DNA from: Desulfobulbus propionicus DSM 2032
GTDB lineage: Bacteria > Desulfobacterota > Desulfobulbia > Desulfobulbales > Desulfobulbaceae
NCBI RefSeq assembly: GCF_000186885.1
Contig: NC_014972.1
Location: 3,660,001 to 3,692,000 of the forward strand
Length of the DNA stretch: 32,000 bases
Direction of reading: 5' to 3'
Shown here: in pieces, positions 192 through 30,392 of the stretch
How the letters are laid out: the number at the start of each line of letters is the position of its first letter
Numbering within the stretch: the stretch's first letter is position 1
Made by a program: the position numbers and the translations under genes
The notes under the pieces: generated by a model
What the model was told of the DNA's origin: nothing
Seen by the model: the letters and a program-made list of their open reading frames with translations, nothing else
Database searches by the model: none

Positions 192-238
192 GTCGGCTGC
201 GTTTATCGTTTTGATTCCTTGAAACACCCGTGGCAAAC

Positions 239-11701: not shown

Positions 11702-11829
11702 GGGAAACAGACGGAGAGCGGTGTGTCCAGAGTCCCTTTCCCTTTGCCTCGGCTCATGCCGATGATTATTCATAGTTCATACAAACAGTTCCCGCGTTGC
11801 CTGCCCTTTTCCTGACAAGGAGGATGCCC

Positions 11830-15282: not shown

Positions 15283-15453
15283 CAGGGAAGCCGTTTTCGT
15301 CGGCGTCGACCGGATTGGGGTTCGCCCTTGCCGCACAATCTCTTCCAGGCGGCAAGGAAATCTGCTTGACAGGAATTTGGCCCGTTCGGTACACAGTTGA
15401 GTAGATACAATCTTCAACCCAAAAGCCTTGCCCGTATGATTCGAGAAGCCTCT

Positions 15454-16332: not shown

Positions 16333-16444
16333 GAATATTTTACTCTCGCCGCACGGCAAAAGCGTGCATGCACGGCTGCCCACTCATGCTTTTGCGCGAA
16401 CCGAATCACGGTTGATGGTGTTGACTTGGAAGGAGAACCGCTCC

Positions 16445-16909
16445 ATGGACAAGGAAAAACGGCAAAAATATTTCGTCAGCCGGCAGGACTCGGTCACGGT
16501 CAGATGCATTGCCTGTGGACAGATCAATGCCATGTCCGTTGCCGCGCTCCGTGGCAGGAAACATTCGCTCAAGGTCAACTGTCCCTGTGGCGAAGTCTTT
16601 TCCGTGGATCTCGAATTCCGCCAAGATTACCGGCAGGCAACCAATATTGCCGCTACCTTTCGCGCCCTCTCCACCCCTCTGGCCAGGGCGCGGCAATGCG
16701 TGGTCGCCGACCAGTCCAACGGTGGTCTCCTCCTGCTCATCGACGAGGGAGTGCCGATCAGACAGGATGACCGGATCATTGTCCGCTACCGTCCGGTCGC
16801 CGATTCGGATCATGAGGTGGAACGGATCATCAGGGTCCGCCACTATGATTGGGGCAGCCGCATCGGGGGGGCCTTCGTTGACGGTTCGCCGGCCACGGTT
16901 CTCCATTGA
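16445..16909 (+). CDS. PilZ-domain (c-di-GMP receptor) protein with N-terminal CxxC...CxC zinc-ribbon-like segment
   Basis: ATG 16445 has AGGAG 9 nt upstream. N-terminus VRCIACGQIN...KVNCPCGEVF, followed by the PilZ signature pair RQDYR (RxxxR) and DQSNGG (D/NxSxxG). Confidence 0.7.
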   Translation: MDKEKRQKYFVSRQDSVTVRCIACGQINAMSVAALRGRKHSLKVNCPCGEVFSVDLEFRQDYRQATNIAATFRALSTPLARARQCVVADQSNGGLLLLIDEGVPIRQDDRIIVRYRPVADSDHEVERIIRVRHYDWGSRIGGAFVDGSPATVLH

Positions 16910-16958
16910 TCGGCTTCGGTTGTCCTGACACGCCATATCCCGCGGACAGGCCTCTTCC

Positions 16959-17765
16959 ATGAAATCCCTTGCCCCAAAACAGCTTGCGGATCGTTTCGCT
17001 GCCGCCGCCGTTGCCGTGCGGACGGCAAGACATGCCGTGGCCCTGACCGGCGCCGGCATCTCGGTGGGCAGCGGCATCCCTGATTTCCGCAGCCCCGGGG
17101 GCTTATGGACCGTGTTCTCGCCGGAAGAGTATGCCACTCTCGATGTTTTTTACCGCAACCCGGCCAAGGCCTGGGAACTCTTCCGCGCCCTGGGGAAAGT
17201 TCTGATCGGGAAAAAACCCAACGCCGCCCACCTGGCCCTGGCCGAACTGGAACAGCATGGCTGGCTTCAGGGAGTGATTACCCAGAACATCGACAACCTT
17301 CATCAGCAGGCCGGCAGCCGCCGGGTGTTCGAGATCCACGGCGAACACCAGCACTTGCAATGTCTGCATTGCGGCGACCTGCGTCCCATTGAGCCTGAGC
17401 TGTACCAATGTCCCGATGTGCCGCTCTGCCCGCACTGTTCGTTTCCCCTCAAACCGAACGTGGTGCTGTTCGGCGAATCGGTGCGCGAGCTTGAGGCCAT
17501 CCACGAATTCGTCGCCGACTGCGATCTGTTGCTGGTGATCGGCACCTCGACCCAAGTCTATCCGGCAGCCGCTCTTCCCGCCATGGTCCAACAAAACGGC
17601 GGCCGGATCATCGAATGCAACCGGGAACCGGCGCTATCCTCCACCAGTTCCGGCCGCTTCACCGATTTGTTTCTCCAGGGCGATGTCCTCCACACCCTGC
17701 CGGTGCTGGTCGATGCCTGCCGCCACCCGTGCGTGCCCCCCGGCCCTGACCGCCTGGCTGAGTAA
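16959..17765 (+). CDS. cobB: NAD-dependent protein deacylase, Sir2 family (sirtuin)
   Basis: Has GAGISVGSGIPDFRS, QNIDNLH, EIHG and GTS..V.PAA, plus the Zn module CLHCG...CPHC. Confidence 0.9.
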   Translation: MKSLAPKQLADRFAAAAVAVRTARHAVALTGAGISVGSGIPDFRSPGGLWTVFSPEEYATLDVFYRNPAKAWELFRALGKVLIGKKPNAAHLALAELEQHGWLQGVITQNIDNLHQQAGSRRVFEIHGEHQHLQCLHCGDLRPIEPELYQCPDVPLCPHCSFPLKPNVVLFGESVRELEAIHEFVADCDLLLVIGTSTQVYPAAALPAMVQQNGGRIIECNREPALSSTSSGRFTDLFLQGDVLHTLPVLVDACRHPCVPPGPDRLAE

Positions 17766-17852
17766 TGCTTGCCTTTTCACGCAATATGCTGTAGAAAGGC
17801 GTTTTCGTAGCCACGCGTTATTTTTCTTCAACGTTTTGAATAGTCCACGGTT

Positions 17853-17880
17853 GCCTGGCCAAATTGGTCAGGCGTTTTTT
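17853..17880 (+). terminator. rho-independent terminator downstream of cobB
   Basis: The 8-bp stem GCCTGGCC / GGTCAGGC (one G-U pair) has loop AAATT and is followed by TTTTTT (17875-17880). It lies 88 nt after the cobB stop. Confidence 0.7.
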
Positions 17881-18068
17881 GTTGTAGTCGACCGCTCGCC
17901 TTTTTCCCGCTTATTTTTCACAGCATAGAAACTGGAACGGTCAGGTTTGACAGGCAGGCTCTTACTTTCCGGATGGGGCATCTGTTAACGGACAACAGGG
18001 ACAGAGGCCGCAAGGCCGAATCCACCCCAGGATAGCTCAAGACATAGCCGCTCGTGAGGAGTCGCCCG

Positions 18069-19727
18069 ATGACCACCGCAACCTTTGCCCGCTTTGGCCT
18101 GCATCCCGATTTGGTGCAGACCGTAACCGAACTCGGTTTTACCGATCCCACCCCCATTCAACAGGCCGCCATTCCGCTGCTGCTCGAAGGCCGCGACCTG
18201 ATCGGCCAGGCCCAGACCGGCACCGGCAAAACCGCTGCCTTTGGCCTCCCGCTGCTGCAACGGATCACACCCCGCCAACAGGGGGTCCAGGCCCTGGTCC
18301 TGGCGCCCACCCGTGAGTTGGCCATCCAGGTGGCCGAGGCCATCCAGCGATACGGCCAGCAGCGGGGGATTACCGTGCTGGCTGTGTATGGCGGCCAGGC
18401 CTATCAACAGCAGATCCGCAGTCTACGCCAGGGCGTCGAGGTGATCGTCGGCACCCCCGGCCGTCTGCTCGACCTCATGAATCAGGGCACGCTCGATCTG
18501 ACCACGGTGCGGACCGTGGTTCTTGACGAGGCCGACGAGATGCTGAGCATGGGTTTTGTCGAGGATATCGAATTGATCCTCGACCGCATTCCCGCCGAAC
18601 GTCAGACCATGCTCTTTTCCGCCACCATCTCCAAGCGGGTCCTGGGCCTGTCCGCCCGCTACCTGCGCGACCCGGAAACAGTGTCCATCACCCCCAAGCA
18701 GTTGACCGGCGCCACCATCGAACAGCGCTATTACCTGGTCAACCAGCAGGACAAGGTGGCGGCCCTGACCCGACTGTTCGAAATGGAGACCATCGATAGC
18801 GCCCTGATCTTCACCCGCACCCGAATTGGAACCGGCGAATTAGCCAACCAACTGACTTCACGAGGTTTCCCAGCCGAAGCTCTCAACGGTGACCTCAGCC
18901 AGGATGCCCGTATCCAGGTGTTGAACCGGTTTCGCAACGGCCAGGTCAAGGTCCTGGTGGCCACCGACGTGGCCGCACGCGGTCTGGACATCGACGACAT
19001 CTCCCACGTGTTCAACTTCGATCTGCCCGACGACCCCGAGGTCTATGTCCACCGGGTGGGTCGTACCGGTCGGGCTGGCCGGGAAGGGATCGCCATCTCC
19101 CTCCTCACCCCCAAGGACCGGTGGATTCTCCGCCGGATCGAGGACTATGCCCGCTACAAGCTGACCCGGGCCGAACTGCCGACCATCCAGCAGATCGAGA
19201 ACCATCGCCAGGCCCTGCTGATGGAGCAGTTGGAGGTGTGGATTCGCCGGGGCCGTTGCCGCCGGGAACGGGAAGTGGTGGAGATGCTGCTGCAAACCGG
19301 CCACCAGGCCGAGGATATCGCCGCCGCCGCCCTCAAGCTGGCCCGGGGCGAGGAAAAAAAACGGCCCATCGATCCGATCACGCCGATCAAGGAAGAGCAG
19401 TTCAATCCGCGTGAGCGCAAGAATGATCGCTTCCCACGTCGTGGCGGTCAGGCCGGGACAGGACCAGGGGGGCGACGGGGACACGACCGCGACAGGGACA
19501 TGGTGCCGCTCAGGCTCAATGTCGGCCGGGCCGATGGGGTTGGCGTCAACCATGTGGTGGCCTCGCTGGCCCATTATTCCGGGGTCGCTGCCGTTCAATT
19601 GGGCAAGATCCGGTTGGAAGCGGACCATACCTTGGTCGATGTGCCGGAGCCATTGGTCGGTCGCCTGCTTTCAAAAAACGGTGCGTACCGGATCGGCCGG
19701 CGCGCGGTGAACCTGGAGCGGGCCTGA
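18069..19727 (+). CDS. deaD: DEAD-box ATP-dependent RNA helicase with DbpA-type C-terminal RNA-binding domain (DeaD/CsdA-like)
   Basis: ATG 18069 has GAGGAG upstream. Q-motif region plus AQTGTGKT, PTRELA, DEAD, SAT and HRVGRTGRAG. An Arg/Gly-rich linker precedes the C-terminal VPLRLNVGRADGV...LVDVP DbpA-like domain. Confidence 0.93.
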   Translation: MTTATFARFGLHPDLVQTVTELGFTDPTPIQQAAIPLLLEGRDLIGQAQTGTGKTAAFGLPLLQRITPRQQGVQALVLAPTRELAIQVAEAIQRYGQQRGITVLAVYGGQAYQQQIRSLRQGVEVIVGTPGRLLDLMNQGTLDLTTVRTVVLDEADEMLSMGFVEDIELILDRIPAERQTMLFSATISKRVLGLSARYLRDPETVSITPKQLTGATIEQRYYLVNQQDKVAALTRLFEMETIDSALIFTRTRIGTGELANQLTSRGFPAEALNGDLSQDARIQVLNRFRNGQVKVLVATDVAARGLDIDDISHVFNFDLPDDPEVYVHRVGRTGRAGREGIAISLLTPKDRWILRRIEDYARYKLTRAELPTIQQIENHRQALLMEQLEVWIRRGRCRREREVVEMLLQTGHQAEDIAAAALKLARGEEKKRPIDPITPIKEEQFNPRERKNDRFPRRGGQAGTGPGGRRGHDRDRDMVPLRLNVGRADGVGVNHVVASLAHYSGVAAVQLGKIRLEADHTLVDVPEPLVGRLLSKNGAYRIGRRAVNLERA

Positions 19728-19897: not shown

Positions 19898-20128
19898 ATG
19901 ACTCTCATGATCGGTATTCATCAGCATCAGGATAAGGTGGAAAAGCTCTACGAGAACATGGGACTGCACGCCGCGGAACTGACTGCGGTCGGTCCCTTTG
20001 CCTCCAAGCAAGAGGCTTTGGCCTGGCAGTTGGACATGCGGAACAAGATCGAGGATTGTCACATCATCGAACCTGCCGGATTGGAGTCTGAAGAAGTTCC
20101 CTGGTATGGCTTCTCCTTTGAAAAATAA
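19898..20128 (+). CDS. hypothetical small protein (76 aa)
   Basis: ATG is preceded by GAGGTG (19888-19893). The sequence is acidic and soluble-looking, with no motif recognised. It is bracketed by terminator-like hairpins on both sides, suggesting its own transcription unit. Confidence 0.5.
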   Translation: MTLMIGIHQHQDKVEKLYENMGLHAAELTAVGPFASKQEALAWQLDMRNKIEDCHIIEPAGLESEEVPWYGFSFEK

Positions 20129-20139
20129 TCCGCGCCAAC

Positions 20140-20175
20140 AAGGGGCCTGCGATGTCGATCGACGATCCCCCTTTT
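20140..20175 (+). terminator. possible terminator hairpin after the 76-aa ORF
   Basis: AAGGGG (20140-20145) pairs with CCCCTT (20068 numbering offset corrected: 20068 not used; pairing partner is 20168-20173), followed by TT. The ~22-nt loop contains the perfect 10-bp palindrome GTCGATCGAC (20154-20163). The large loop and short U tract keep confidence low. Confidence 0.3.
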
Positions 20176-20532
20176 GAACCAAGCAGGTTCACGCCGCTTG
20201 ATGCTCCCTCCATGCCCGCGTCGCCGGGGATGAAGGGGGCGTGGCGCTGTTCAGCTGTTTCTGCATTCTCCTCCCCGCTTTTCCTCGCTCTTCCCTCCTG
20301 GAGAGCGACTTGTTTCCCAGTGCTGCTCTTTCTGGGCACGCCGCCCGGTTTACCGGTTTAATCCCCGTTTCCTGTTCTCATGGGCCTGTTTTTTCCCTTG
20401 TCGGTGACGCATGCTGTCGTGGAGCTTCATGCCCCATGCTCGGCCTGCCTCATTCCTGGGAAAAAACCGTTTCTGTCGGCCGCCCCCGCGATCGACCGAA
20501 CTTTCCTTATCCTCTCTCGCAGGTAACTCCCG

Positions 20533-22488
20533 ATGGATATTCTGCTGCTGACCCTGCCCGTTCTCCTGGCCAGTGGTCTTGCCCCGCTCCTGACCGCCCG
20601 CTGGTTTCGTTGCTGCAAAGCCTTGCACACCACTCTCCTGAGCGCCGGTTGTCTCGGTGGCCTGTACAGCCTGTTCACCTTCTGGCAACACCCCGCGACC
20701 GCCACTTTTTCCTGTTCCTGGCTGCACACCTTTACCCTCTCCTTTGCCCTCGATTCGCTCGGGGCGGTCTTTCTGCTGCCCGTTTTCCTGCTCGTGCCGG
20801 TCATCTCCCTGTACGGCTACCATTACCTTGATCAGGCCACTCATTTCCGGCGAACAGCTCTCAGCCATTTCTTTTTCAGCCTGCTGACAATCGCCATGAT
20901 CCTGGTCACCCTTGCCGACAACATGGTGACCTTTGCCCTGGCGTGGGAATTGATGTCCCTTTCGTCTTTTGCCCTGGTGATGCATGACTGGGAAAAGGAG
21001 CAAACCCAGAGTGCCGGATATCTCTACCTGCTCTTCACCCAAACCGGCGCGCTCTGCATTTTCGCGGCCTTCGGCCTTGTGTTCCAGGCGACCGGTTCGC
21101 TTGCCTTTGCCCAGATGAGCTCCATCCCCCCAGGCATCAAACTCGCGGTCTTTTGCCTCACCTTGGCGGGGTTTGGCTCCAAGGCCGGCCTGTTTCCCCT
21201 CCATGTCTGGCTTCCCCATGCCCATCCGGCCGCTCCCAGCCATGTCTCGGCCCTGATGTCCGGGGTGATGATCAAGATGGGGATTTATGGCCTTGTTCGC
21301 TTCTATTTCCTCCTGGACAGCCCAACGCCGATTTTTGCCCGGACCATTCTCGTGCTCGGCATGATCTCCGGCCTGCTCGGCGTGGTGTACGCCCTCGGCA
21401 AACACGATCTCAAACGGCTCTTGGCCTACCACAGCATCGAAAACATCGGCATCATTCTTATCGGCTGCGGCCTGGGCATGCTGGGACTTGCCTCGGGCAA
21501 CCGGATCATGGCCGCCTTCGGGTTTGCCGGAGGCATACTGCACGTGCTCAATCACGCCCTGTTCAAATCCCTGCTTTTTCTCGGCGCCGGGTCCATTCTC
21601 CAGGCCACCGGTCTCCGCCATCTTGACCAGTTGGGCGGGCTGATGCGCACCATGCCGGTCACCGGCCGCACCTTTCTCACCGGCGCGGTGGCGATTTCCG
21701 GACTGCCTCCTCTGAACGGCTTCATCAGTGAATTTCTCATCTACTACGCCGCGTTTCAGGGGCTGGTATTGGGCGGCACCGACTTTCTCTTCTCCATGGC
21801 CGCGATCATCTCGTTGGCGCTCATCGGCGGCTTGGCCGCGGGCTGCTTCACCAAGGTCGTGGGGATTGTCCTGCTCGGCGAACCGCGCCACACCCACGGC
21901 CGAGAACAAGGCGATGCCGCCTTGTCCATGCGCGCGGCCATGGTCTTCCTCGCCCTCGTCTGCGTTCTCATTGGCCTGTGGCCGGAACCCTTTGTCCGTT
22001 TTGCCTTTGCAGGACTGGCCAGCCTCAAACCCTTTACAGCTATCCCGGGAGAGGTCAGCGGCACCATCGCGCACCATCTTGCCGTGGCCGGCCGTCTCTT
22101 TCTCGGACTGCTGATTGTCCTCATGGGGTGCCGTTGGCTATTGTACCGGAACAAGCCCGTCAGCCAAAGCGGCACCTGGGGCTGCGGCTTTACCCAGGCA
22201 ACCAGCCGCATCCAATACACCGGCACATCCTATGCCCGGAGCCTGGTCGAATTTCATCGCCCTTTGGTCAGGGTGCGGACCACCTACCCAGGCCTTGGCA
22301 AAATCTTCCCCGGCAGCGTCGCCTATGTCAGCAAAGTCGAGGATGTGGCCGAACTCGGTCTCCATTGCCTCCTCATCCGGCCACTGCTCAAGGGTGTGGA
22401 AAAACTGCGCTGGATTCAGCACGGCCACATTCAACTCTACATTGGCTATATTGTCCTCACCATCGCTGTCCTCCTGCTGGTGGTCTAA
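20533..22488 (+). CDS. ehrA: antiporter-like membrane subunit (NuoL / HyfB / HycC-like, proton-conducting transporter family) of an Ehr-type complex
   Basis: 651 aa and highly hydrophobic. Has the family core WELMSLSSF, GFGSKAGLFPLHVWLPHAHPAAPSHVSALMSGVMIKMG, LLAYHSIENIG and HALFKSLLFLGAGS. AGGTAA RBS precedes ATG 20533. The symbol follows my recollection of Geobacter 'Ech-hydrogenase-related' annotation, not a search. Confidence 0.88.
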   Translation: MDILLLTLPVLLASGLAPLLTARWFRCCKALHTTLLSAGCLGGLYSLFTFWQHPATATFSCSWLHTFTLSFALDSLGAVFLLPVFLLVPVISLYGYHYLDQATHFRRTALSHFFFSLLTIAMILVTLADNMVTFALAWELMSLSSFALVMHDWEKEQTQSAGYLYLLFTQTGALCIFAAFGLVFQATGSLAFAQMSSIPPGIKLAVFCLTLAGFGSKAGLFPLHVWLPHAHPAAPSHVSALMSGVMIKMGIYGLVRFYFLLDSPTPIFARTILVLGMISGLLGVVYALGKHDLKRLLAYHSIENIGIILIGCGLGMLGLASGNRIMAAFGFAGGILHVLNHALFKSLLFLGAGSILQATGLRHLDQLGGLMRTMPVTGRTFLTGAVAISGLPPLNGFISEFLIYYAAFQGLVLGGTDFLFSMAAIISLALIGGLAAGCFTKVVGIVLLGEPRHTHGREQGDAALSMRAAMVFLALVCVLIGLWPEPFVRFAFAGLASLKPFTAIPGEVSGTIAHHLAVAGRLFLGLLIVLMGCRWLLYRNKPVSQSGTWGCGFTQATSRIQYTGTSYARSLVEFHRPLVRVRTTYPGLGKIFPGSVAYVSKVEDVAELGLHCLLIRPLLKGVEKLRWIQHGHIQLYIGYIVLTIAVLLLVV

Positions 22489-22508
22489 GCCCATTCAAGG
22501 TCGCTGAT

Positions 22509-23423
22509 ATGGAATCCCTGTTCTCTTTTTTCCTGGCACTGCTGGTGGCGCCCCTGTTTCCCGGCATCATCCTCAAAACCAAGGCCTTGTTCGCCGGCAA
22601 AAAAGGGCCGCCGCTTCTGATCAAATACTACACCTTGGCAAAACTGCTGCGAAAAGGATCGGTCTACAGCACCAGCACCAGTTTTGTCTTTCGCCTCGGC
22701 CCCCCGATTGCCTGCGCCACCTCGCTCATGGCCCTGCTGTTCTTTCCCTTTGCCGGCATTCCGCCGCTGATCGCCTTCCATGGCGACGTGATCGTCCTGT
22801 TTTATCTTCTTGGTCTGGGAAGATTTTTTACCATCGTCGCCGCCCTGGACACGGCCTCGCCCTTTGAAGGCATGGGCGCGGCCCGCGAGGCCTTTTTCTC
22901 CACCCTTGCGGAAGGGACGATCTTTGTCATTCTGATTCTTTTTTTCCGCATGAGCGGCTCGCTCAGCCTGGCCGGATATTTCTCGGGCAGCCCTTCGATC
23001 TCGATTGCCGGCCCCCAGGGCGCCCTGCTGTTGCTGGTCATCGTGGCCTTATTCATGGTTCTGCTGGCCGAGAACTCGCGCGTGCCGGTGGACGATCCGG
23101 CGACCCATCTGGAACTGACCATGATCCACGAGGTGATGATCCTCGATCACAGCGGCCCTGACCTGGCTCTGATCGAACTGGGGGCCTTCTACAAGCTGTT
23201 CTTTTACGCCTCCTTTGTCGCCTGCCTGATCAAGCCGCTGTTCCCGGCCGGGCCGATCGTCAACACCCTGCTGTTTTACGGACTGCTGACCGCGGTCTAC
23301 CTGGCCATCGGCATTACCGAGTCAATCACTGCCCGGTTGAAGATGAACCTGGTTCCCAAGTACATCCTGACTTCCTTTGCCCTGGCCTTTTTCGCCATCA
23401 TCCTCACCATGGAGCTTGTGTGA
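22509..23423 (+). CDS. ehrB: NuoH / HyfC / HycD-like membrane subunit
   Basis: 304 aa from ATG 22509. Has the typical pattern: GPPLLIKYYTLAKLLRKG near the N-terminus, ASPFEGMGAAREA, and LAENSRVPVDDPATHLELTMIHEVMILDHSG (the NuoH/HycD cytoplasmic loop motif). The ORF-track extension back to 21978 overlaps ehrA and is rejected. Confidence 0.88.
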   Translation: MESLFSFFLALLVAPLFPGIILKTKALFAGKKGPPLLIKYYTLAKLLRKGSVYSTSTSFVFRLGPPIACATSLMALLFFPFAGIPPLIAFHGDVIVLFYLLGLGRFFTIVAALDTASPFEGMGAAREAFFSTLAEGTIFVILILFFRMSGSLSLAGYFSGSPSISIAGPQGALLLLVIVALFMVLLAENSRVPVDDPATHLELTMIHEVMILDHSGPDLALIELGAFYKLFFYASFVACLIKPLFPAGPIVNTLLFYGLLTAVYLAIGITESITARLKMNLVPKYILTSFALAFFAIILTMELV

Positions 23424-24076
23424 TGATCAACAGCACGGATGTCATCCTGGTCCTGATTCTCCTCTCGACCCTTCTGTCCCTGGGGTCCAGCCGCATGATG
23501 GCCCTGATCAAGATCATGGCCCTGCAGGGTGCCCTGGTTTCGCTCACCCCCATTTTCATTGAATCCCAGACGAAGTTGAGCAACAGCGGCATCCTCTTCT
23601 TCCAGCTGATGTTCCTGATCAAGGCCGTGCTCATACCCGGCCTGCTCTACATGGCCCTGACCCGAATCGCCATCAAGCGCGAGGTGGAGCCCCTGATCGG
23701 CTACCACGCCTCGCTCGCCGTGGGGCTCGGTCTCATCCTCCTTTCGACCTACATCACCCGCCATCTGGCGATCTCCCTCCAGGGCGATTATTTTCATCTG
23801 CTGATCACGGCGATCACCACTCTTGGCGGCGGCCTTTTTCTCATGATGAGCCGGACCAAGGCCCTCACCCAGGTCATCGGCTATCTGATGCTCGAAAACG
23901 GCATCTATCTGGTCGGCACCGCGCTCACCAAGCACCAGCACAACATCTATCTGGTCGAATTCGGCGTTCTGCTCGATCTGCTGGTCGGAGTGATGATCAT
24001 GGGCATCATCCTTCACAACATCAACCGTGCCTTTGACGACGTCGACACCACCTATCTCGAACAACTCAAGGATTGA
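23423..24076 (+). CDS. ehrC: HyfE-like small membrane subunit (NuoK-related)
   Basis: 217 aa with about 6-7 helices. GYLMLENGIYLVG resembles the NuoK/HyfE Glu-containing helix. ATG 23423 overlaps the ehrB stop codon by 1 nt (TGATG). Confidence 0.8.
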   Translation: MINSTDVILVLILLSTLLSLGSSRMMALIKIMALQGALVSLTPIFIESQTKLSNSGILFFQLMFLIKAVLIPGLLYMALTRIAIKREVEPLIGYHASLAVGLGLILLSTYITRHLAISLQGDYFHLLITAITTLGGGLFLMMSRTKALTQVIGYLMLENGIYLVGTALTKHQHNIYLVEFGVLLDLLVGVMIMGIILHNINRAFDDVDTTYLEQLKD

Positions 24077-24080
24077 TGCC

Positions 24081-25508
24081 ATGCTCGAATCCATTTTCTG
24101 TGTACCGCTGTTCACGGGTCTGATCGCCCTCTTTTTGCCGATCAAGCTGGGCCGAATCGTTCTGGTGGTCAGTGGCCTGCTCCATCTGCAGATGACCCTG
24201 CTCGCCTGGCTGACCTCCTTTACCCCCCTGCTGCCCGGTTATTTCGGCAGCGCCCCCTCCGGCATGCTGGTGCTGGTGGTCACGTCGTTCATCTTCCTGT
24301 GCATCGCTCCATACAGCGTGTTCTACATGCGTGAGCAGGAAATGCAGAGCGAACCGATCTTCATCGGCTGCATGCTGCTCTTTCTCGCGACCATGAGCAT
24401 GGCGGCCCTGGCCGAGCATCCGATCGTCTTCTGGATCGCTGTTGAAGCCACCACCCTGGTCAGCGCACCGCTGATCTTTATCAACCGTTCGAAAAAGGCC
24501 CTGGAGGCCACCTGGAAGTATGTGCTCATCTGTTCGGTGGGCATTGCCTTGGCCCTGCTCGGTTTCTTTTTCATCACCCTGTCCATGGAACAAGCCGATC
24601 TTGACGTGCCGCTAACCTTCTCCTCGCTCAACAGCGCCGCCCGCCAACTCGATCCGAGCTGGCTGAAGACCGGATTCATCTTCGTCCTCATCGGATTTGG
24701 CACCAAAATGGGTTTGGCGCCCATGCACACCTGGCTACCCGATGCCCACAGCGAGGCGCCCAGCCCTGCCTCGGCCCTGCTGTCTGGCGCGCTGCTCAAC
24801 TGTGCCTTCCTGGGCATCTACAAGGTGCACACCCTGATGGTCCTGGCCGGCTTGGGCGACTTCTCCGGATCGCTGCTCATCGGCTTCGGCTTGTTCTCCA
24901 TCCTGGTGGCCGGCATCTTTATCCTCAACCAGTCGGATTACAAACGGATGCTCGCCTATTCGAGCATCGAGAACATGGGCGTGATCGCCTTTGGCGTCGG
25001 CATCGGCGGCCTCGGCCTGTACGGGGCCATGCTCCATCTCATCCATCATTCGCTGCTCAAATCCTCGCTCTTTCTTTCCGCCGGCAATCTGGTGCTTGGC
25101 TTCGGCACCAAACTGGTGGCACGGTGCGGTGGCATGGTCAGCCTGCTGCCTCGAACCTTTGTCTCCTTTTTTGCCGGTTTTGTCGGCATCTCCGGATTGC
25201 CGCCCTTTGGCATCTTTCTCAGCGAATTGATGATCCTGCTCGGGGCCTTTCAAACCGGCCACCCCCTGGCTGCCGGGCTGTTCATCGCCACCCTGGTGCT
25301 GGTGCTCGCCGGTTTTGCCCGGATTGTCACCGCCATGTCCTTTAGCCCCCGCCAGGAAGAAGTTTTGGTCGAGGAGCAGACCCTGCGGATCATCCCGCCC
25401 CTTGCCCTGCTGCTGACTTCGGCCCTGCTCTGCGTCTGGATGCCCGAACCCCTTTTCCGGACCATCGTCAACACCATCGCGGTGATCGGAGGAACCATCC
25501 ATGGATAA
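24081..25508 (+). CDS. ehrD: antiporter-like membrane subunit (NuoN/NuoM / HyfF-like)
   Basis: 475 aa from ATG 24081, with AAGGA 8 nt upstream. Has WIAVEATTLVSA, GFGTKMGLAPMHTWLPDAHSEAPSPASALLSG, MLAYSSIENMG and HSLLKSSLFLSAGN. Confidence 0.88.
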   Translation: MLESIFCVPLFTGLIALFLPIKLGRIVLVVSGLLHLQMTLLAWLTSFTPLLPGYFGSAPSGMLVLVVTSFIFLCIAPYSVFYMREQEMQSEPIFIGCMLLFLATMSMAALAEHPIVFWIAVEATTLVSAPLIFINRSKKALEATWKYVLICSVGIALALLGFFFITLSMEQADLDVPLTFSSLNSAARQLDPSWLKTGFIFVLIGFGTKMGLAPMHTWLPDAHSEAPSPASALLSGALLNCAFLGIYKVHTLMVLAGLGDFSGSLLIGFGLFSILVAGIFILNQSDYKRMLAYSSIENMGVIAFGVGIGGLGLYGAMLHLIHHSLLKSSLFLSAGNLVLGFGTKLVARCGGMVSLLPRTFVSFFAGFVGISGLPPFGIFLSELMILLGAFQTGHPLAAGLFIATLVLVLAGFARIVTAMSFSPRQEEVLVEEQTLRIIPPLALLLTSALLCVWMPEPLFRTIVNTIAVIGGTIHG

Positions 25509-27012
25509 CCTGCTGCGGATCGACAACGGCGAACTGATCGAACGGCAGCGGATACCGCGCGTCGATTTCAGCCATTTCCTGCGCTTGCTGACCGACTTCG
25601 TCCATGCCAACGGCTACGTGGTCCAACTGTTTGCCTACCCGGAGGAAGGGCAGACTCGTCTGCTGGCCGTTGTCCGCAACAGCAACCTGTTTGTGCTCGA
25701 GACAACGGTTGACCGCGAGTTTCCTTCGTTGACCCTTGCCGGCGGCGCCAAATTCAGCATGTTTGAGCGGGAAATCGCCGAACAGTACGGTTTGATGCCG
25801 CTGGGCCACCCTTGGCTGAAAATGGTCCGCTACCACCCCAATTACACGGGACAGCCCGACGTCTTCGGCAACGACTACCAGCAGGACATCCCCGGCAACT
25901 ACCCGTATTTCCGGATCGAGGGCGAAGCCATCCACGAGGTCGGGGTTGGGCCGGTGCACGCCGGAATCATCGAACCGGGCCACTTTCGCTTCCAGTGCGC
26001 CGGCGAAGAGGTTCTCCATCTTGAGATTCAACTGGGCTACCAGCACCGGGGCCTTGAGCCCATGCTGACCACGGTGCCCCGCAAACGATTGCCCATCCTG
26101 TGCGAGGCCATCGCCGGGGATACCACCATCGGTCATACTCTCTGCTGCTGTCAAGCCATCGAGTCCCTGGCCGGCCTTTCGGTCGAACCCGGCGCCCGCA
26201 CGGTTCGCACCATTGCCCTTGAGCTGGAGCGAATCGCCAACCATATCGGCGACCTTGGCGCCCTCAGCGGCGACGTGGCCTTTAACCCGCCCGCAGCCTA
26301 TTTCGGCCGTATCCGCGGCGAATTCCTCAATCTGCTGCTCACCCTGTGCGGCAACCGTTTCGGCAAGAGCCTCATCCGGCCGGGCGGTGTCACCCAGCCG
26401 ATGGCGACGGAGCAACGGCAGATCATCCGCGCTAAAATCAAGGAACTGCGCAAGGAAATCATCCAGGTCTGCGATCTACTGTTCTCGGCCCATACGGTTC
26501 TGGCCCGGTTCGAGGACACCGGCACGGTCATCCGCAAGGTCGCCGATCAACTCGGCCTGGTGGGATATTGCGGCCGTGCCTCCGGCCTGGAATACGATGT
26601 GCGCGAATTTTTCCCCACCGAACGATACGCCGAGCTGCCCGCCAACAGCAACCGGGTGACCAACGGCGATGTGTACAGCCGGGCCATGGTCCGGCGCGAG
26701 GAAATCCTGCACGCGCTTGGCTTGATCGAAACCCTGCTGGCCGAACAGGAAGAGCCGCATCGGCCGGTTTGCTGGCAGGAGGGTGACCTTGCACCGGCGA
26801 GTTTCGTCGTGACCCTCAACGAAGGGTGGCGAGGCGAAGTCTCCCACTGCGTGCTGACCGATGCACACGGCAACATCCTGCGCTACAAGGTCAAGGACCC
26901 ATCCTTCCACAACTGGACAGGACTGGCCATGGCCCTGCGCAACCAGGAAATCTCGGATTTTCCGTTGTGTAACAAGAGCTTCAACCTCAGCTACTGCGGC
27001 TTTGATCTCTAG
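25501..27012 (+). CDS. ehrL: fused NuoC-NuoD / HyfG-HycE-like large subunit lacking the [NiFe] cysteine ligands
   Basis: 503 aa; the start overlaps the ehrD stop by 8 nt. The NuoC-like N-terminus has FEREIAEQYGL.PLGHP. The large-subunit core has VGPVHAGIIEPGHFRF, EIQLGYQHRG and RIANHIGDL. Where group-4 hydrogenases have E-R-x-C-G-x-C-x-x-x-H, this protein reads EAIAGDTTIGH (26104-26136). The C-terminus ends SFNLSYCGFDL with no DPCxxC motif and no cleavable extension. Confidence 0.88.
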   Translation: MDNLLRIDNGELIERQRIPRVDFSHFLRLLTDFVHANGYVVQLFAYPEEGQTRLLAVVRNSNLFVLETTVDREFPSLTLAGGAKFSMFEREIAEQYGLMPLGHPWLKMVRYHPNYTGQPDVFGNDYQQDIPGNYPYFRIEGEAIHEVGVGPVHAGIIEPGHFRFQCAGEEVLHLEIQLGYQHRGLEPMLTTVPRKRLPILCEAIAGDTTIGHTLCCCQAIESLAGLSVEPGARTVRTIALELERIANHIGDLGALSGDVAFNPPAAYFGRIRGEFLNLLLTLCGNRFGKSLIRPGGVTQPMATEQRQIIRAKIKELRKEIIQVCDLLFSAHTVLARFEDTGTVIRKVADQLGLVGYCGRASGLEYDVREFFPTERYAELPANSNRVTNGDVYSRAMVRREEILHALGLIETLLAEQEEPHRPVCWQEGDLAPASFVVTLNEGWRGEVSHCVLTDAHGNILRYKVKDPSFHNWTGLAMALRNQEISDFPLCNKSFNLSYCGFDL

Positions 27013-27031
27013 CCGGACAGGGCCGGACAGG
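27012..27031. repeat. short tandem direct repeat in the ehrL-ehrS spacer
   Basis: GCCGGACAGG occurs twice in tandem (27012-27021 and 27022-27031), followed by the related GACAGACAG (27032-27040). It lies in the only sizeable (66-nt) gap of the six-gene cluster. Confidence 0.6.
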
Positions 27032-27078
27032 GACAGACAGCCAACCTCGACACATCATCACTCAGACAGGAACAGATC

Positions 27079-27825
27079 ATGTTCAAGGTACTCTACAACC
27101 GACTGGAACAGGGATATCGGACCAGCAGCTATCCCACGAAACCAATCGCCCTTTATTCACGATTTCGAGGAATTCCAGAAATCAATGCCGACTGCGATCC
27201 GGCCATTGCCCGCCAATGCGCCGCACTCTGTCCCCAGGAAGCCATCATCGCGGAGGAGAAGAAAATTGATCTGGGTCGCTGCACCTTCTGTGGCGCCTGT
27301 GCCTTGGTGGCGAACGGGGCATTTGTCCGTTTCACCCAGAATTTCGAATTGGGCACGGCCCATCGTGACCATCTGATTACCGGCGGCTCGCTGCCTGACC
27401 TGGCCAGTCACGCCAAGGCCCATTTCAAAAAACTTTTCGGCCGTTCGTTGCAACTCCGCCAGGTTTCAGCCGGCGGGTGCAACGCCTGCGAGGCCGATAC
27501 CAATGTGTTGAACACGCCCTTTTTCGATCTCTCCCGGTTCGGCATCGACTTTGTCGCCTCGCCGCGACATGCGGACGGCATTCATGTCACCGGGCCGATT
27601 ACCCGGAACATGAGAACCGCCCTGCTCGATACTTATGCCGCGGTACCCGCCCCCAAGGTGGTGATCGCCAGCGGCTGTTGTGCGATTTCCGGCGGTCCTT
27701 TTCATGGTTCCCGTGAAATCCTGGGCGACCTCAATGCGCTCATCCCGGTGGACCTCTACATTCCGGGCTGCCCGCCGCATCCCCTCACCACCCTCCACGC
27801 CCTGCTGGCCTTTTTCAAGAAATAA
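27079..27825 (+). CDS. ehrS: fusion of a reduced ferredoxin-like domain (HyfH/HycF/NuoI-related) with a NuoB / HyfI / HycG-like small subunit
   Basis: 248 aa. The N-terminal ~90 aa carry CDPAIARQCAALCP and CTFCGAC, which are 6 of the 8 Cys of a 2x[4Fe-4S] ferredoxin. The C-terminal part has GGCNACE, ASPRHADG, GCCAISGG and PGCPPHP, so all four ligands of the proximal N2-type [4Fe-4S] cluster are present. Confidence 0.88.
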   Translation: MFKVLYNRLEQGYRTSSYPTKPIALYSRFRGIPEINADCDPAIARQCAALCPQEAIIAEEKKIDLGRCTFCGACALVANGAFVRFTQNFELGTAHRDHLITGGSLPDLASHAKAHFKKLFGRSLQLRQVSAGGCNACEADTNVLNTPFFDLSRFGIDFVASPRHADGIHVTGPITRNMRTALLDTYAAVPAPKVVIASGCCAISGGPFHGSREILGDLNALIPVDLYIPGCPPHPLTTLHALLAFFKK

Positions 27826-28056: not shown

Positions 28057-29280
28057 ATGGAAATTTACATTGCCAGGCAACCCATTTTCGACCGGCACAA
28101 ACGTCTGCATGCCTACGAGGTGTTGTACCGTTCCGGGATGGACAACACCTACCCAGCCAGCGTGGACAGCGACGAGGCAACGCATACCGTTCTGGCCCAT
28201 GTCCTGTTCAATATCGGGTTGGACGCCATCACAGGCAACCGCCTGGCCTTGATCAACTTCACTGAAAATCACCTGTTGCAGGGAACTCCCACCCAACTGC
28301 CGCGGACACGCTGCATTATCGAAATTCTCGAGTCGATCCTGCCCTCAGCGGAGGTCTTCACCGCCTGTCTGGAGTTAAAGCGCAAGGGATATACGCTTGC
28401 CCTGGACGACTTTGATTTCAATCGACGATCCGAGCAACTCATCCCCTATGTCGATATCGTCAAGGTTGATTTCCAGGGTATTGACCGCATGTTGCTGAAT
28501 GAAAACATGGTCCGGATGCGGCAGTATGCCGCAGTACAATGGCTTGCCGAAAAAATTGAAAGCCACGAGGACTTCACCTTGGCCCAATCCCTTGGTTTCA
28601 CCTACTTTCAAGGCTATTTTTTCAACAAGCCGGAGATCCTGAAAAACCGCAAGATCGACACCTCGAAAATCATTCTCCTCAATCTGCTGGCCGAGGTGTG
28701 CCGTCCGGAGATCAATCTGAAGAAAGTCGAACAAATGGTCGCGCCCGACGTGTCGCTCTCCTACAAGCTCCTTCGCTACATCAATTCGGTATATTATTCG
28801 TTGGTGCGTAAAGTCACTTCCATCCGCTATGCCCTGACCTATCTAGGAGAAAGCGGGACGCGGCAATTCGTTTCCCTGGCGGCAGCTTCGGAGATTTCCG
28901 CAGGCAAACCTTCGGAATTGATGCGCTTATCGATGGTCCGGGCGGAACTCTGCCGATTGCTGGCCGCTTCCCGCCCAAGTTCAACCGATGCTTCCCAGCT
29001 CTTTCTGCTTGGTCTTTTTTCGTTGCTGGACGCCATGCTCGACATGCCCATGGACGAGCTCACCGATCAACTGCCTCTCACCGCCGAGGTGAAGGCGGCC
29101 CTCAACGAGCGCAAGGGGCCGTTTGCCCCCTATCTCCAGGCGGTGACCACCTACGAACAAGGCGAATTCGAGGCCTGCACCGAGTTTCTGCGGATGCTCA
29201 ACATTGCCCCTGACATCATGATCAGCGCCTATTTCAGGGCCCTGGCCTGGGCCGATCTCTTTGACGCCAATCTTGCCTGA
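28057..29280 (+). CDS. EAL-domain plus HDOD-domain signalling protein (COG3434-type putative c-di-GMP phosphodiesterase)
   Basis: Has the MEIYIARQPIFD....YEVLYR start typical of this architecture. EAL catalytic-position residues are recognisable (EVL, INFTE, EILE, LDDFD, VKVD, AEKIE, FQGYFF). The C-terminal half has HDOD-like features (LSYKLLRYINS, YALTYLG, LLGLFSLLD). Confidence 0.85.
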   Translation: MEIYIARQPIFDRHKRLHAYEVLYRSGMDNTYPASVDSDEATHTVLAHVLFNIGLDAITGNRLALINFTENHLLQGTPTQLPRTRCIIEILESILPSAEVFTACLELKRKGYTLALDDFDFNRRSEQLIPYVDIVKVDFQGIDRMLLNENMVRMRQYAAVQWLAEKIESHEDFTLAQSLGFTYFQGYFFNKPEILKNRKIDTSKIILLNLLAEVCRPEINLKKVEQMVAPDVSLSYKLLRYINSVYYSLVRKVTSIRYALTYLGESGTRQFVSLAAASEISAGKPSELMRLSMVRAELCRLLAASRPSSTDASQLFLLGLFSLLDAMLDMPMDELTDQLPLTAEVKAALNERKGPFAPYLQAVTTYEQGEFEACTEFLRMLNIAPDIMISAYFRALAWADLFDANLA

Positions 29281-29408: not shown

Positions 29409-30248
29409 TCATTCGAACAGACTGGGGGTGGTGCGCAGGAATTGCTGAACATTCTCCAGTTCGGCAGAGGTGAGCTTGAGGGCGACCGCCTCGTGCAGTT
29501 GCAGCAGCGCCAGGGAAGGCGCATGGGCCAGCCCGATGCCCATCTGGTGGCAAATGTGATTGGCCATGCGCACCAGCAGAAGGACGTAGTTTTCAGCATC
29601 AAACTCCGGCAAATCATGATCCCGGGCGACAACGGCAAACATCTCCGGCATGCTGATCTGCCGCAGCAGCAGATATCCCTGTTCCGCATGGAGGAGATCC
29701 ATGGCCCCGAGCAGCAGTTCCTGGGGCACCTGGAGCGCTTGCTTTTTTCTTTTCTTTTCGGCGAACACCTTAAGAATGAGCAACTTGCCGATATCATGAA
29801 ACAGACCGGCGGAAAAAGCCTCGTGCTGCATCACCCCGAAATCAAGGCGATTGGACAGCATGCCGGCGGCAAAGGCGCATCCCAGTGAATGCTGCCAGAG
29901 TTTTTTCATGATCTCGTTCAATTGTCCATCGCGACAGCTGAACATGTTTTTGCTGATGTCCACGAGCACGATGCGGCTGACTTCCGACAACCCCAGCCGG
30001 ACCAGGGCCGACCTGACTGTGGTGACGAGAACAAACCCACGATACATCGACGAGTTGGCCACTTTGAGGAGATTGCTGGAAAGCGCCTGATCACCGCTGA
30101 TCAATTTTTCAACGATGCGGAAATCGGGCTCTTTTTTGATCAGTTCGCGCTGAATCCGCAGTGAAACGGGATTAAAGACCGGCAGGGAAAGCCGTTCCGA
30201 TTCAATGTATTTCTTGAGTAGGGCGACAAAAGTACGTTCGTTGGTCAT
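29409..30248 (-). CDS. HDOD-domain protein
   Basis: 279 aa from ATG 30248 (MTNERTFVALLKKYIESERLSLPVFNP). Has LSSNLLKVANSSMY, ALVRLG, WQHSLGCA, GLFHDIGKLLI and ARDHD. The upstream in-frame extension to 30392 is Pro/Gly/Arg-rich and was trimmed. Confidence 0.85.
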   Translation of the reverse strand: MTNERTFVALLKKYIESERLSLPVFNPVSLRIQRELIKKEPDFRIVEKLISGDQALSSNLLKVANSSMYRGFVLVTTVRSALVRLGLSEVSRIVLVDISKNMFSCRDGQLNEIMKKLWQHSLGCAFAAGMLSNRLDFGVMQHEAFSAGLFHDIGKLLILKVFAEKKRKKQALQVPQELLLGAMDLLHAEQGYLLLRQISMPEMFAVVARDHDLPEFDAENYVLLLVRMANHICHQMGIGLAHAPSLALLQLHEAVALKLTSAELENVQQFLRTTPSLFE

Positions 30249-30364
30249 CCTAAGCCATGGGGTAAGTGGGCCGAAAAGGGCGCGTGGTCCGTCATGCCAA
30301 GCGCGCGGCGCCTGAGAGCCTTGCCCGAAGGGCGTTGCCATCGCGTCGGCTCGGCAGGATAGGT

Positions 30365-30392
30365 AGCATAAAACGCGCGCCAAATGAAGCAA
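30365..30392 (-). promoter_or_regulatory. candidate sigma-70-type promoter for the HDOD gene
   Basis: On the minus strand: TTGCTT (30392-30387), 16-nt spacer, TATGCT (30370-30365), roughly 110 nt upstream of ATG 30248. Motif match only. Confidence 0.3.

Follow-up and report, generated by a model that had tools for sequence, protein, structure and literature searches.

The Ehr complex of Desulfobulbus propionicus holds a conserved pocket in place of a Ni-Fe site, and inorganic-carbon genes adjoin its relatives

The Ehr (energy-converting hydrogenase related) complexes were first identified in Geobacter and are related to complex I and to Ech, and their function is unknown (PMC3569383, PMC7894505, PMC10284858, PMC10432482). 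Their large subunit usually lacks the nickel-iron (Ni-Fe) cysteines of hydrogenases, that is, the CxxC motifs (PMC3569383, PMC10284858, PMC10432482). The ehr locus described here lies in a stretch of 32,000 nucleotides (nt) of Desulfobulbus propionicus DSM 2032 (contig NC_014972.1, positions 3,660,001 to 3,692,000 of the forward strand), called the window below, in which six co-oriented open reading frames (ORFs) of the plus strand span positions 20533-27825. We find that the six-gene complex is neither a hydrogenase nor complex I, and that the locus, a typical representative of the named, uncharacterised Ehr family, is not new in itself. What is new relative to the searchable literature are the inorganic-carbon genes that neighbour ehr in its relatives, the reverse association by which ehr is found at 12 of 16 loci of an LCIB-like gene, and clades that have lost the proximal cluster ligands of the small subunit and kept the pocket of the large one. 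The gene set, the loss of motifs, the patterns of conservation and the neighbourhoods in relatives are direct observations.

The six genes are as follows.

20533-22488, plus strand: ehrA, 651 amino acids, HyfB/NuoL-like antiporter-type subunit
22509-23423, plus strand: ehrB, 304 amino acids, HyfC/HycD/NuoH-like subunit
23423-24076, plus strand: ehrC, 217 amino acids, HyfE-like subunit with a NuoK-like C-terminal half
24081-25508, plus strand: ehrD, 475 amino acids, HyfF/MbhH/NuoN-like antiporter-type subunit
25501-27012, plus strand: ehrL, 503 amino acids, HycE/MbhL-like large subunit without a Ni-Fe site
27079-27825, plus strand: ehrS, 248 amino acids, fused small subunit with a ferredoxin domain and a NuoB-like domain

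The junctions measure, in order, +20, -1, +4, -8 and +66 nt, and a Shine-Dalgarno-like purine run lies upstream of every one of the six starts. An earlier note on this DNA had placed six co-oriented genes at 20533-27825 with these same gaps and overlaps, and the ORF coordinates agree exactly; its naming of the products as HyfB-, HyfC/NuoH-, HyfE-, HyfF-, HyfG- and ferredoxin-HyfI-like is borne out by Pfam, NCBIfam and the chains of solved structures. EhrA and EhrD both match Proton_antipo_M (PF00361, 1.5e-53 and 5e-49), EhrB matches NADHdh (PF00146, 1.6e-25), EhrL Complex1_49kDa (PF00346, 1.1e-34) and EhrS Oxidored_q6 (PF01058, 8.5e-26), and the match of EhrC to Oxidored_q2 (PF00420, 1.4e-4) is weak. 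In NCBIfam the closest families by name are hydrogenase-4 subunits B, E and F together with NuoD, NuoB and HycF/HyfH, and none of the scores reaches its curated cut-off: EhrA reaches 555 bits against a cut-off of 667 for NF005086 (hydrogenase 4 subunit B), EhrC 74 against 136 bits for HyfE (with 1.3e-20 to NF008556, hydrogenase 4 membrane subunit) and EhrD 335 against 610 bits for NF005044 (hydrogenase 4 subunit F, 7.4e-100). The cut-offs of the Nuo families are likewise missed (NuoD 171 against 360, NuoB 108.2 against 116 and NuoH 26.6 against 305 bits).

Among solved structures the Hyc and Mbh chains outscore the Nuo chains for each subunit. EhrL scores 138 bits with HycE (PDB 7z0s_E), 130 with MbhL, 108 with Nqo4 and 69.5 with MbsL, EhrS scores 116 bits with HycG and 107 with MbhJ, and the top solved relative of EhrD is MbhH (6cfw_H, 108 bits), with the Glu and Lys motifs aligned. 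EhrS, which NF009053 matches at 6.6e-16, divides into a HycF/NuoI-like ferredoxin domain at about residues 1-105 (the N-terminal third matches the HycF chain at 1.7e-10) and a HycG/MbhJ/NuoB-like domain at about residues 110-248. The NuoC-like N-terminal part of EhrL is visible only in the alignment with HycE and through PF00329 on its relatives, there being no Pfam match to this part of EhrL itself.

The complex of Geobacter sulfurreducens (EhrA-1, A-2, B, C, D, L and S, GSU0739-45) resembles that of the window in its subunit types, its loss of the CxxC motifs and its antiporter-like subunits; by its published description it has two EhrA subunits against one here, and the ferredoxin domain of EhrS here is that of one cluster. 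Escherichia coli Hyf (HyfB, C, E, F, G, H and I) and HycC-G of FHL-1 (PDB 7z0s) are the best solved or curated relatives of nearly every subunit; shared with them are the succession of subunit types, the motif EPGHFR and the cluster ligands of the small subunit. Unlike Hyf and Hyc, the window has no Ni-Fe ligands and no HyfD, its HyfH and HyfI are fused, and there is no partner of the formate dehydrogenase (FDH) or HycB type and no hyp or hycI gene nearby. Chains H, L and J of Pyrococcus MBH (PDB 6cfw) are matched by EhrD, EhrL and EhrS, although MBH has a Ni-Fe site and Ehr does not, and the chain of Glu and Lys residues in the antiporter-like subunits is common to MBH, MBS, Mrp and Ehr, of which Ehr has far fewer subunits. 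EhrL is much less similar to MbsL of Pyrococcus MBS (PDB 6u8y) than to MbhL. Complex I (Nuo) contains homologous NuoL/N, NuoH, NuoK, NuoD and NuoB modules; unlike Nuo, the window set is without NuoA, NuoJ, NuoE, NuoF and NuoG and without the quinone-ligand residues. The gene set, the motif loss and the published descriptions of Ehr together support the assignment to the Ehr class made in the earlier note, as well as its statement that no function is known.

All four cysteines that hold Ni-Fe in hydrogenases are replaced in EhrL. As the alignment with HycE puts Ala205 and Thr208 under the cysteines of the L1 motif and Ser497 and Gly500 under those of L2, the Ni-Fe ligands are lost, and neither of the group 4 hydrogenase motifs, L1 (RxCGxCxxxH) and L2 (DPCxxCxx[H/R]), is found in the protein, which agrees with the claim that the catalytic subunit is unable to bind Ni-Fe. 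Three short stretches define the former site, and EhrL ends at the position where hydrogenase precursors are cleaved.

25972-25989, plus strand: EPGHFR motif, E158-R163, common to EhrL and HycE
26104-26136, plus strand: former L1 motif, EAIAGDTTIGH, aligned with RVCGICGFAH of HycE
26977-27009, plus strand: former L2 motif and C-terminus, SFNLSYCGFDL, of which NLSYCGFDL is aligned with DPCYSCTDR of HycE

The residues that took the place of the ligands are conserved in their own right. Conservation was counted over 56-75 relatives per subunit, at 57-86% identity, the closest proteins being those of Desulfobulbus and of Desulfobulbaceae metagenome-assembled genomes at no more than 86%. In 75 relatives of EhrL the replacements A205, T208, S497 and G500 are invariant, together with G206, D207, E158, P159, G160, F162 and R163 and with C166, S493, N495, L496, Y498, C499 and D502, and E202 and H161 are each kept in 74 of the 75. 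The resulting pocket signature (E158, H161, E202, [A/S/C]-G-D-[T/S], H212 and S-x-[N/D]-L-S-Y-x-G-D-L) reaches down to 34% identity in a search of 1.84 billion cluster representatives, and its carriers include Hydrogenedentota, Bacteroidota, Gemmatimonadota, Acidimicrobiales, Binatia and Nitrospirota. A survey of 150 representatives of 50%-identity clusters, about 115 of them full-length, found the Ni-Fe-less signature in about 110 of the full-length sequences, all four Ni-Fe cysteines in only three and three cysteines in one. EhrL thus holds a family-specific polar and acidic pocket in place of the Ni-Fe site.

Conservation extends to the membrane arm and to the arrangement of the genes. In 80 genome loci of Desulfobulbales and Desulfobacterales (loci are given by our own numbers where needed) the six genes form a single block, in the order ABCDLS in 58 and with the remainder mostly on incomplete contigs. 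The canonical Glu of transmembrane helix (TM) 5 and Lys of TM7, TM8 and TM12 are invariant in both antiporter-like subunits, the invariant residues being E139, K217, K294, H337 and K345 of EhrA in 56 relatives and E122, K209, K288 and K327 of EhrD in 69. Equally invariant are E127, E188, D195, D196, E202, E208, D213 and E271 of EhrB in 63 relatives (E120 in 62 of the 63) and E179 and D185 of EhrC in 64 (E158 in 62 of the 64). Since the pocket, the iron-sulfur (Fe-S) cysteines and the Glu and Lys residues of the proton path are invariant or nearly so across relatives, the complex is complete and kept by selection rather than decaying. A hydrogenase operon that is cryptic or in decay and serves no function itself would fit the loss of all four Ni-Fe ligands and the lack of hyp genes in the window, and yet the six frames are intact and tightly coupled, the proton-path residues do not vary, hundreds of sequences from many phyla show little or no variation at the replacement residues, and Ehr proteins have been detected by proteomics in Geobacter (PMC7894505), so that we consider this explanation hardly credible and effectively refuted.

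EhrS carries two sets of Fe-S ligands.

27217-27300, plus strand: cysteines of the ferredoxin-like domain, C47, C51-P, C68, C71 and C74
27478-27774, plus strand: ligands of the proximal (NuoB N2-type) [4Fe-4S] cluster, C134, C137, C201 and C231

C51, C68, C71 and C74 are cysteine in 70 of 70 relatives and C47 in 69, with C39 variable, and the four proximal ligands are cysteine in all 70 and align with cysteines of HycG and MbhJ. By their motifs the ligands of the ferredoxin-like domain are predicted to suffice for one [4Fe-4S] cluster. The motif for a second has degenerated, so that of the ancestral pair of ferredoxin clusters one is gone and, with the proximal cluster, a two-cluster relay is left. 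The ferredoxin-NuoB small subunit of the earlier note therefore stands as a fusion, with a ferredoxin domain that keeps the ligands of one cluster and not of two.

A relative with an intact metal site helps to place these losses. The Ni-Fe sister of Planctomycetota 'Ca. Wujingus' (L176, 4877-12871) shares with the window the A-B-C-D-L-S set and order and the ferredoxin-NuoB fusion; an unrelated small gene is inserted between L and S, and its large subunit is about 34% identical to EhrL. Unlike the window, it keeps C-G-x-C and C-x-x-C and has two full CxxCxxCxxxCP ferredoxin motifs. The L176 enzyme is presumably, judging by these motifs, a true ferredoxin-dependent H2-evolving enzyme, and it is likely a living model of the Ehr ancestor; since it combines the six-gene set and order with Ni-Fe, Ehr would descend from a six-subunit ferredoxin-type H2-evolving enzyme.

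Alignment of the small subunits of ten clades showed the full set of clusters in the Ni-Fe sister and in some Ehr clades, and one ferredoxin cluster plus the proximal cluster in the clade of the window. In three clades all four ligands of the proximal cluster are replaced, namely L082/L083 of Bacteroidota, the Chr-linked L093 of Rikenellaceae, and L085/L086, which are linked to a CBS protein and a permease, and the EhrL of all three retains the pocket signature. The complexes of these clades are predicted to be unable to transfer electrons, and as they keep the pocket, the pocket is not simply a redox active site and may have a role other than redox catalysis. The core function of Ehr may accordingly be driven by, or generate, an ion gradient without redox chemistry, like Mrp and DabAB. 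The earlier note had proposed a minimal ion-translocating redox module with some unnamed reaction where Ni-Fe used to sit; the idea that redox chemistry takes place there is weakened by the three clades.

The same Fe-S ligands bear on the main rival explanation, a redox-driven respiratory pump in which electrons would pass from ferredoxin over two [4Fe-4S] clusters to menaquinone or another acceptor at the interface of EhrL, EhrS and EhrB, with H+ or Na+ pumped. Such a pump might run in reverse, making reduced ferredoxin for CO2 fixation, and the carbonic anhydrase and transporter neighbours described below would then reflect a shared regulon for autotrophy or CO2 assimilation. It accounts well for the nine cysteines kept in 69-70 of 70 relatives, for the six-gene architecture and ferredoxin-NuoB fusion of the ancestor-like sister and for the presence of all the quinone-chamber subunits (NuoD-, NuoB- and NuoH-like), and at one distant locus (L091), whose EhrS has no ferredoxin domain, a gene for a NIL-ferredoxin lies directly 5' in the operon; both the cysteines and this gene argue that ferredoxin-linked electron input is still used in the clade of the window. 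Less easily reconciled with it are the hydrogenase backbone of EhrL, the retention of the pocket in the clades without a proximal cluster and the wide margins by which the Nuo cut-offs are missed. The His of the beta1-beta2 loop and the Tyr of NuoD, which we take to be the quinone ligands of complex I, have no counterpart either: in the alignment with Nqo4 of Thermus thermophilus the His position is Ile in EhrL, and the Tyr falls in a two-residue insertion that EhrL lacks. Nor do genes for electron-donor or electron-acceptor enzymes recur beside ehr, among de novo families of the genome loci or at the sampled distant loci. We regard this explanation as doubtful, while giving it serious weight.

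Formate has been brought into the discussion of Ehr from two sides, as all Ehr subunits of G. sulfurreducens are most abundant in formate-grown cells (PMC7894505), which would also suit a redox pump, and an FDH-Ehr supercomplex has been proposed without evidence for Margulisbacteria (PMC6349859). A link of this kind has been suggested for Geobacter too. An unlinked FDH docking on Ehr would be in keeping with both reports and with the descent of the family from enzymes of the formate-hydrogenlyase type. A final acceptor would still be needed, and genes for FDH, NuoE or NuoF are absent from the window and do not recur in the 80 genome loci or the sampled distant loci, so that we find a formate-linked complex highly improbable. 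In line with the earlier note, Pfam turned up no gene for hyp functions, endopeptidase, FdhF or other FDH, CooS or other CO dehydrogenase, or NuoEFG among the large ORFs elsewhere in the 32-kilobase (kb) window.

A sulfane-sulfur reductase like MBS or Mbx, in which ferredoxin electrons reduce polysulfide or persulfide at the proximal cluster, would suit the sulfur-disproportionating Desulfobulbales and the abundance of Ehr in sulfur-cycling Desulfobacterota. MBS (PDB 6u8y), which we take to be a Ni-Fe-less relative that catalyses at its Fe-S cluster, offers a precedent, and one Bacteroidota locus has a divergent fusion of CoA-disulfide reductase, rhodanese, TusA and DsrE and an ArsR regulator beside ehr. 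That very locus, however, has no proximal cluster in its EhrS, sulfur genes do not recur in the Desulfobacterota loci, MbsL is not the closest chain to EhrL (69.5 bits against 138 for HycE and 130 for MbhL), and six genes face the thirteen-subunit Mrp-type architecture of MBS. We therefore think a sulfur reductase quite unlikely.

What does recur beside ehr are genes of inorganic-carbon metabolism. In 16 of the 80 genome loci, belonging to Desulfocapsaceae, Desulfurivibrionaceae and cable bacteria, a gene for an LCIB-like protein is found at most 10 kb from the ehr block, mostly adjoining it on the same strand, with gaps of 37-375 nt (measured in 13 loci). A beta-carbonic anhydrase gene follows ehrS on the same strand at a distance of 174-441 nt in five of the loci, and a SulP transporter with a STAS domain is found in four. 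Eleven further Ehr clades, with EhrL 31-42% identical to each other and to that of the window, were sampled through their encoding contigs, and in four of them anion or inorganic-carbon genes abut the ehr operon on the same strand.

L087/L088: gene of the SbtA family (Pfam 1.2e-87) directly upstream of ehr
L093 (Rikenellaceae): two Chr half-transporter genes 7 nt downstream of ehr
L094: beta-carbonic anhydrase gene downstream of ehr
L085/L086: genes for a CBS protein and a CitMHS/ArsB-type permease downstream of ehr

Inorganic-carbon genes (LCIB-like, beta-carbonic anhydrase, SulP, SbtA and Chr) thus adjoin ehr in at least five deep clades. As no more than a rough guide to chance, an assumed frequency of about five such genes in a genome of 4,000 and a neighbourhood of six genes would give less than 1% per clade, and four or five independent occurrences by chance are very unlikely.

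The association was also read in the reverse direction, with the LCIB-like family as the seed of a scan of metagenomes; the 80 loci obtained were searched for a set list of query proteins only. At 12 of the 16 LCIB-like loci with at least 60% identity to the reference and at least 2.5 kb on both sides ehr genes are present, usually starting directly after the LCIB-like gene. SulP is found in nine of the 80 loci, and a beta-carbonic anhydrase follows ehrS in two. LCIB-like genes of less than 60% identity had no ehr nearby in any of four loci, and the neighbours at two LCIB-like loci without ehr (L134 and L168) offer no clue. SbtA, SulP and Chr are known families of bicarbonate transporters, and the only CO2-active complexes known are the NDH-1-linked vectorial carbonic anhydrase and DAB, in a review that does not mention Ehr (PMC10880623). 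None of the papers that we searched connects Ehr to carbonic anhydrase or bicarbonate transport.

The LCIB-like protein has 393 amino acids and is annotated as hypothetical everywhere. PF18599 (LCIB_C_CA) matches it at E = 4.9e-5 and is precomputed on several members of its family, and a Foldseek search with its model returned LCIB or LCIC for all of the top eight PDB matches (best E = 6e-4, TM scores 0.45-0.60). Cys54, His106 and Cys133, a candidate zinc triad, are nearly invariant in the family, in a Cys/His/Cys spacing that, as we assume, resembles that of PtLCIB4. Taken together, these four lines make it a probable LCIB-type carbonic anhydrase.

Based on these data we tentatively propose, as the reading that we favour although it falls short of probable, that Ehr is an ion-translocating coupler that would serve the acquisition of CO2 or bicarbonate, possibly of another anion, and that would be powered or gated by ferredoxin in the clade of the window. 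H+ or Na+ would pass EhrA, EhrD, EhrC and EhrB along the conserved chain of Glu and Lys residues, a movement that would be linked at the membrane interface with the EhrL pocket. Through this coupling the complex could either give a direction to CO2 hydration by a partner carbonic anhydrase of the LCIB type or beta class, or sustain an ion gradient for Na+-dependent carriers of bicarbonate or other anions, in parallel with the NDH-1/CupA and DabAB systems found elsewhere. In the clade of the window the relay would run from the ferredoxin-like domain to the NuoB-type cluster, and as the ligands of both are strictly conserved, reduced ferredoxin is probably what powers or gates the machine there. 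We infer the coupling, its direction, the ion, the role of the Fe-S clusters and the extension of the inorganic-carbon link to the locus of the window.

A bolder version of this proposal, which we hold more doubtful, is that Ehr and its operon-encoded LCIB-type carbonic anhydrase form an energy-coupled CO2 pump of a third type, beside NDH-1/CupA and DabAB. The hydrogenase scaffold would have been repurposed, its gas channel and proton relay now serving CO2 and H+ and its Ni-Fe site giving way to the Glu/Asp/Ser/Thr pocket; the membrane arm would take away or deliver the proton and so give CO2 hydration its direction, and the ferredoxin-fed Fe-S clusters would be an optional input for power or control that some clades discarded. 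If true, the LCIB family of algae would have arisen in bacteria in association with a pump. Cyanobacterial NDH-1MS (NdhD3/F3/CupA) and DabAB/MpsAB serve here as a working analogy only, for a proton-translocating module of the complex I type in genetic coupling with a carbonic-anhydrase-like protein, alongside SbtA and SulP carriers (PMC10880623; bioRxiv 10.64898/2026.03.13.711513). Unlike NDH-1MS and DAB, Ehr has a partner of the LCIB type or of the standard beta class, a full hydrogenase-derived peripheral arm and no quinone-site signature, and no member of the CupA/ChpXY or DabA families was found by Pfam among the ORFs of the window or at the annotated distant loci.

Several observations weigh against the inorganic-carbon proposal. 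A clear inorganic-carbon gene lies within 10 kb of ehr in just 19 of the 80 genome loci, about a quarter, and there is no carbonic anhydrase or bicarbonate-transporter gene in the window and no inorganic-carbon neighbour at the loci of the closest Desulfobulbus relatives (L001-L016), and therefore the proposal reaches the window by homology only. As SulP, Chr and DASS carriers have sulfate and other anions among their substrates, the shared theme could be general homeostasis of anions or ions. The LCIB-like protein scores 23.2 bits with PF18599 (E = 4.9e-5), under the gathering score of 25, its sequence profile matches no PDB entry, solved LCIB structures included, and its AlphaFold model has a confidence score (pLDDT) of 74 overall and of less than 50 over residues 48-96, which hold Cys54. 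The strict conservation of the Fe-S ligands and the ferredoxin gene of L091 argue in turn for real electron flow to an acceptor still to be named.

Other recurrent neighbours bear on a further alternative, that Ehr is a cation/proton antiporter like Mrp for pH and Na+ homeostasis, in which the Fe-S clusters would be structural or regulatory, with no tie to CO2 and with neighbours of general ion homeostasis. The membrane subunits do match MbhH, MbsH and Mrp A/D chains best, Fe-S-free clades exist, and genes for CBS, ClC, DASS/CitMHS and HTH-EIIA proteins recur beside ehr in Desulfobacterales, Hydrogenedentota and a metagenome locus (L108). An antiporter of this kind leaves unexplained why the hydrogenase-derived peripheral arm and an invariant pocket were retained, and it does not account for the LCIB-like and beta-carbonic anhydrase genes that sit close to ehr in its direction, or for the reverse association at 12 of 16 loci; we hold it to be unlikely.

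The usual neighbours of ehr in Desulfobacterales are a left-handed beta-helix protein, a CBS protein and an SLC13-type permease. The beta-helix protein (473 amino acids, of the family of PDB 3C8V, 'putative acetyltransferase') lies beside ehr in 23-24 Desulfobacterales loci (L042-L079; for example L049, 12518-13939, minus strand) and adjoins the LCIB-like gene in ten metagenome loci (L113, L123, L125, L132, L135, L145 and L147-L150). Its H124, H128, H150 and H188 are invariant. As the candidate triad residue H145 is His in 14 of 22 sequences only and the matches are generic (GlmU, LpxD and the complex I subunit gamma-CA2, E = 6.5e-3), we do not count it as a gamma-carbonic anhydrase. A PtsN-like protein with HTH_17 and PTS_EIIA_2 domains adjoins ehr in Hydrogenedentota (L081, 4248-4943), is paired with a CBS-ClC channel in five Desulfobacterales loci (L041, L043, L044, L048 and L053) and is encoded between the LCIB-like gene and ehrA at the metagenome locus L108. 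At L085 an F-type ATP synthase operon (12232-18677) follows the ehr-CBS-permease cluster on the same strand.

Upstream of ehrA in the window lie two further features.

19898-20128, plus strand: small ORF of 76 amino acids, a possible accessory or leader gene
20129-20532, plus strand: untranslated leader of about 400 nt, pyrimidine-rich, 5' of ehrA

The small ORF has no Pfam or NCBIfam match; tblastn finds homologues just 5' of the ehr block at three related loci (L010, L011 and L022), and DNA of 74% identity stands at the equivalent place in a related Desulfobulbaceae locus (L002). The leader has no Rfam match and its DNA is not conserved in relatives, and a riboswitch or leader RNA before ehrA was accordingly set aside. 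No sigma-70-like site was found upstream of ehrA. Control by sigma-54 was likewise rejected for the window, there being no consensus before ehrA at up to two mismatches and only one sigma-54 activator, 10 kb away. A HAMP histidine kinase and a PAS/sigma-54 activator precede ehr as a pair in about 18-20 relatives (among them L010, L012, L015, L017, L019, L022 and L039), and precede the LCIB-like gene where it is present; no such pair adjoins ehr in the window.

The immediate flanks of the block are a DEAD-box helicase and an EAL-HDOD protein. As the DEAD-box helicase, Sir2, EAL-HDOD, HDOD and SPFH genes of the window are not conserved beside ehr in the 80 related loci, they are uninformative on its function and were set aside. 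Pfam matches of the other large ORFs in the rest of the window comprise a CysM-CysS fusion, sugar transferases, epimerases, a ketopantoate reductase, a PAS/sigma-54 activator, Sir2 and SPFH. Five regions of the window outside the ehr block deserve separate mention.

230-2566, plus strand: single ORF of 778 amino acids, cysteine synthase CysM/CysK (residues 4-298) joined to a complete cysteinyl-tRNA synthetase (305-772) with no stop between
11797-14128, plus strand: two adjacent epimerase/DUF1731 genes, the second with an N-terminal SRPBCC (polyketide-cyclase-like) domain
14055-15404, plus strand: ORF of 449 amino acids in a strongly T-rich stretch (AT skew -0.25), matched by neither Pfam nor NCBIfam; probably an uncharacterised membrane protein
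28057-29280, plus strand, and 29409-30392, minus strand: two HDOD-domain proteins just 3' of the ehr operon, one of them with a partial EAL domain that matches only the C-terminal half of the profile

Ehr is spread over many phyla, with carriers among Geobacter, sulfate reducers, cable bacteria, comammox Nitrospira, ammonia-oxidising archaea and gut Rikenellaceae, and has been labelled 'function unknown' ever since it was named. The value of the present analysis lies in leads at the level of the family, namely the inorganic-carbon neighbours, the Fe-S-free clades that keep the pocket and the Ni-Fe sister of matching gene set, which make its role testable. If true, a role in inorganic-carbon acquisition would add a class to the few energy-coupled pumps known for inorganic carbon and would explain why a hydrogenase-like machine has persisted without its metal site.

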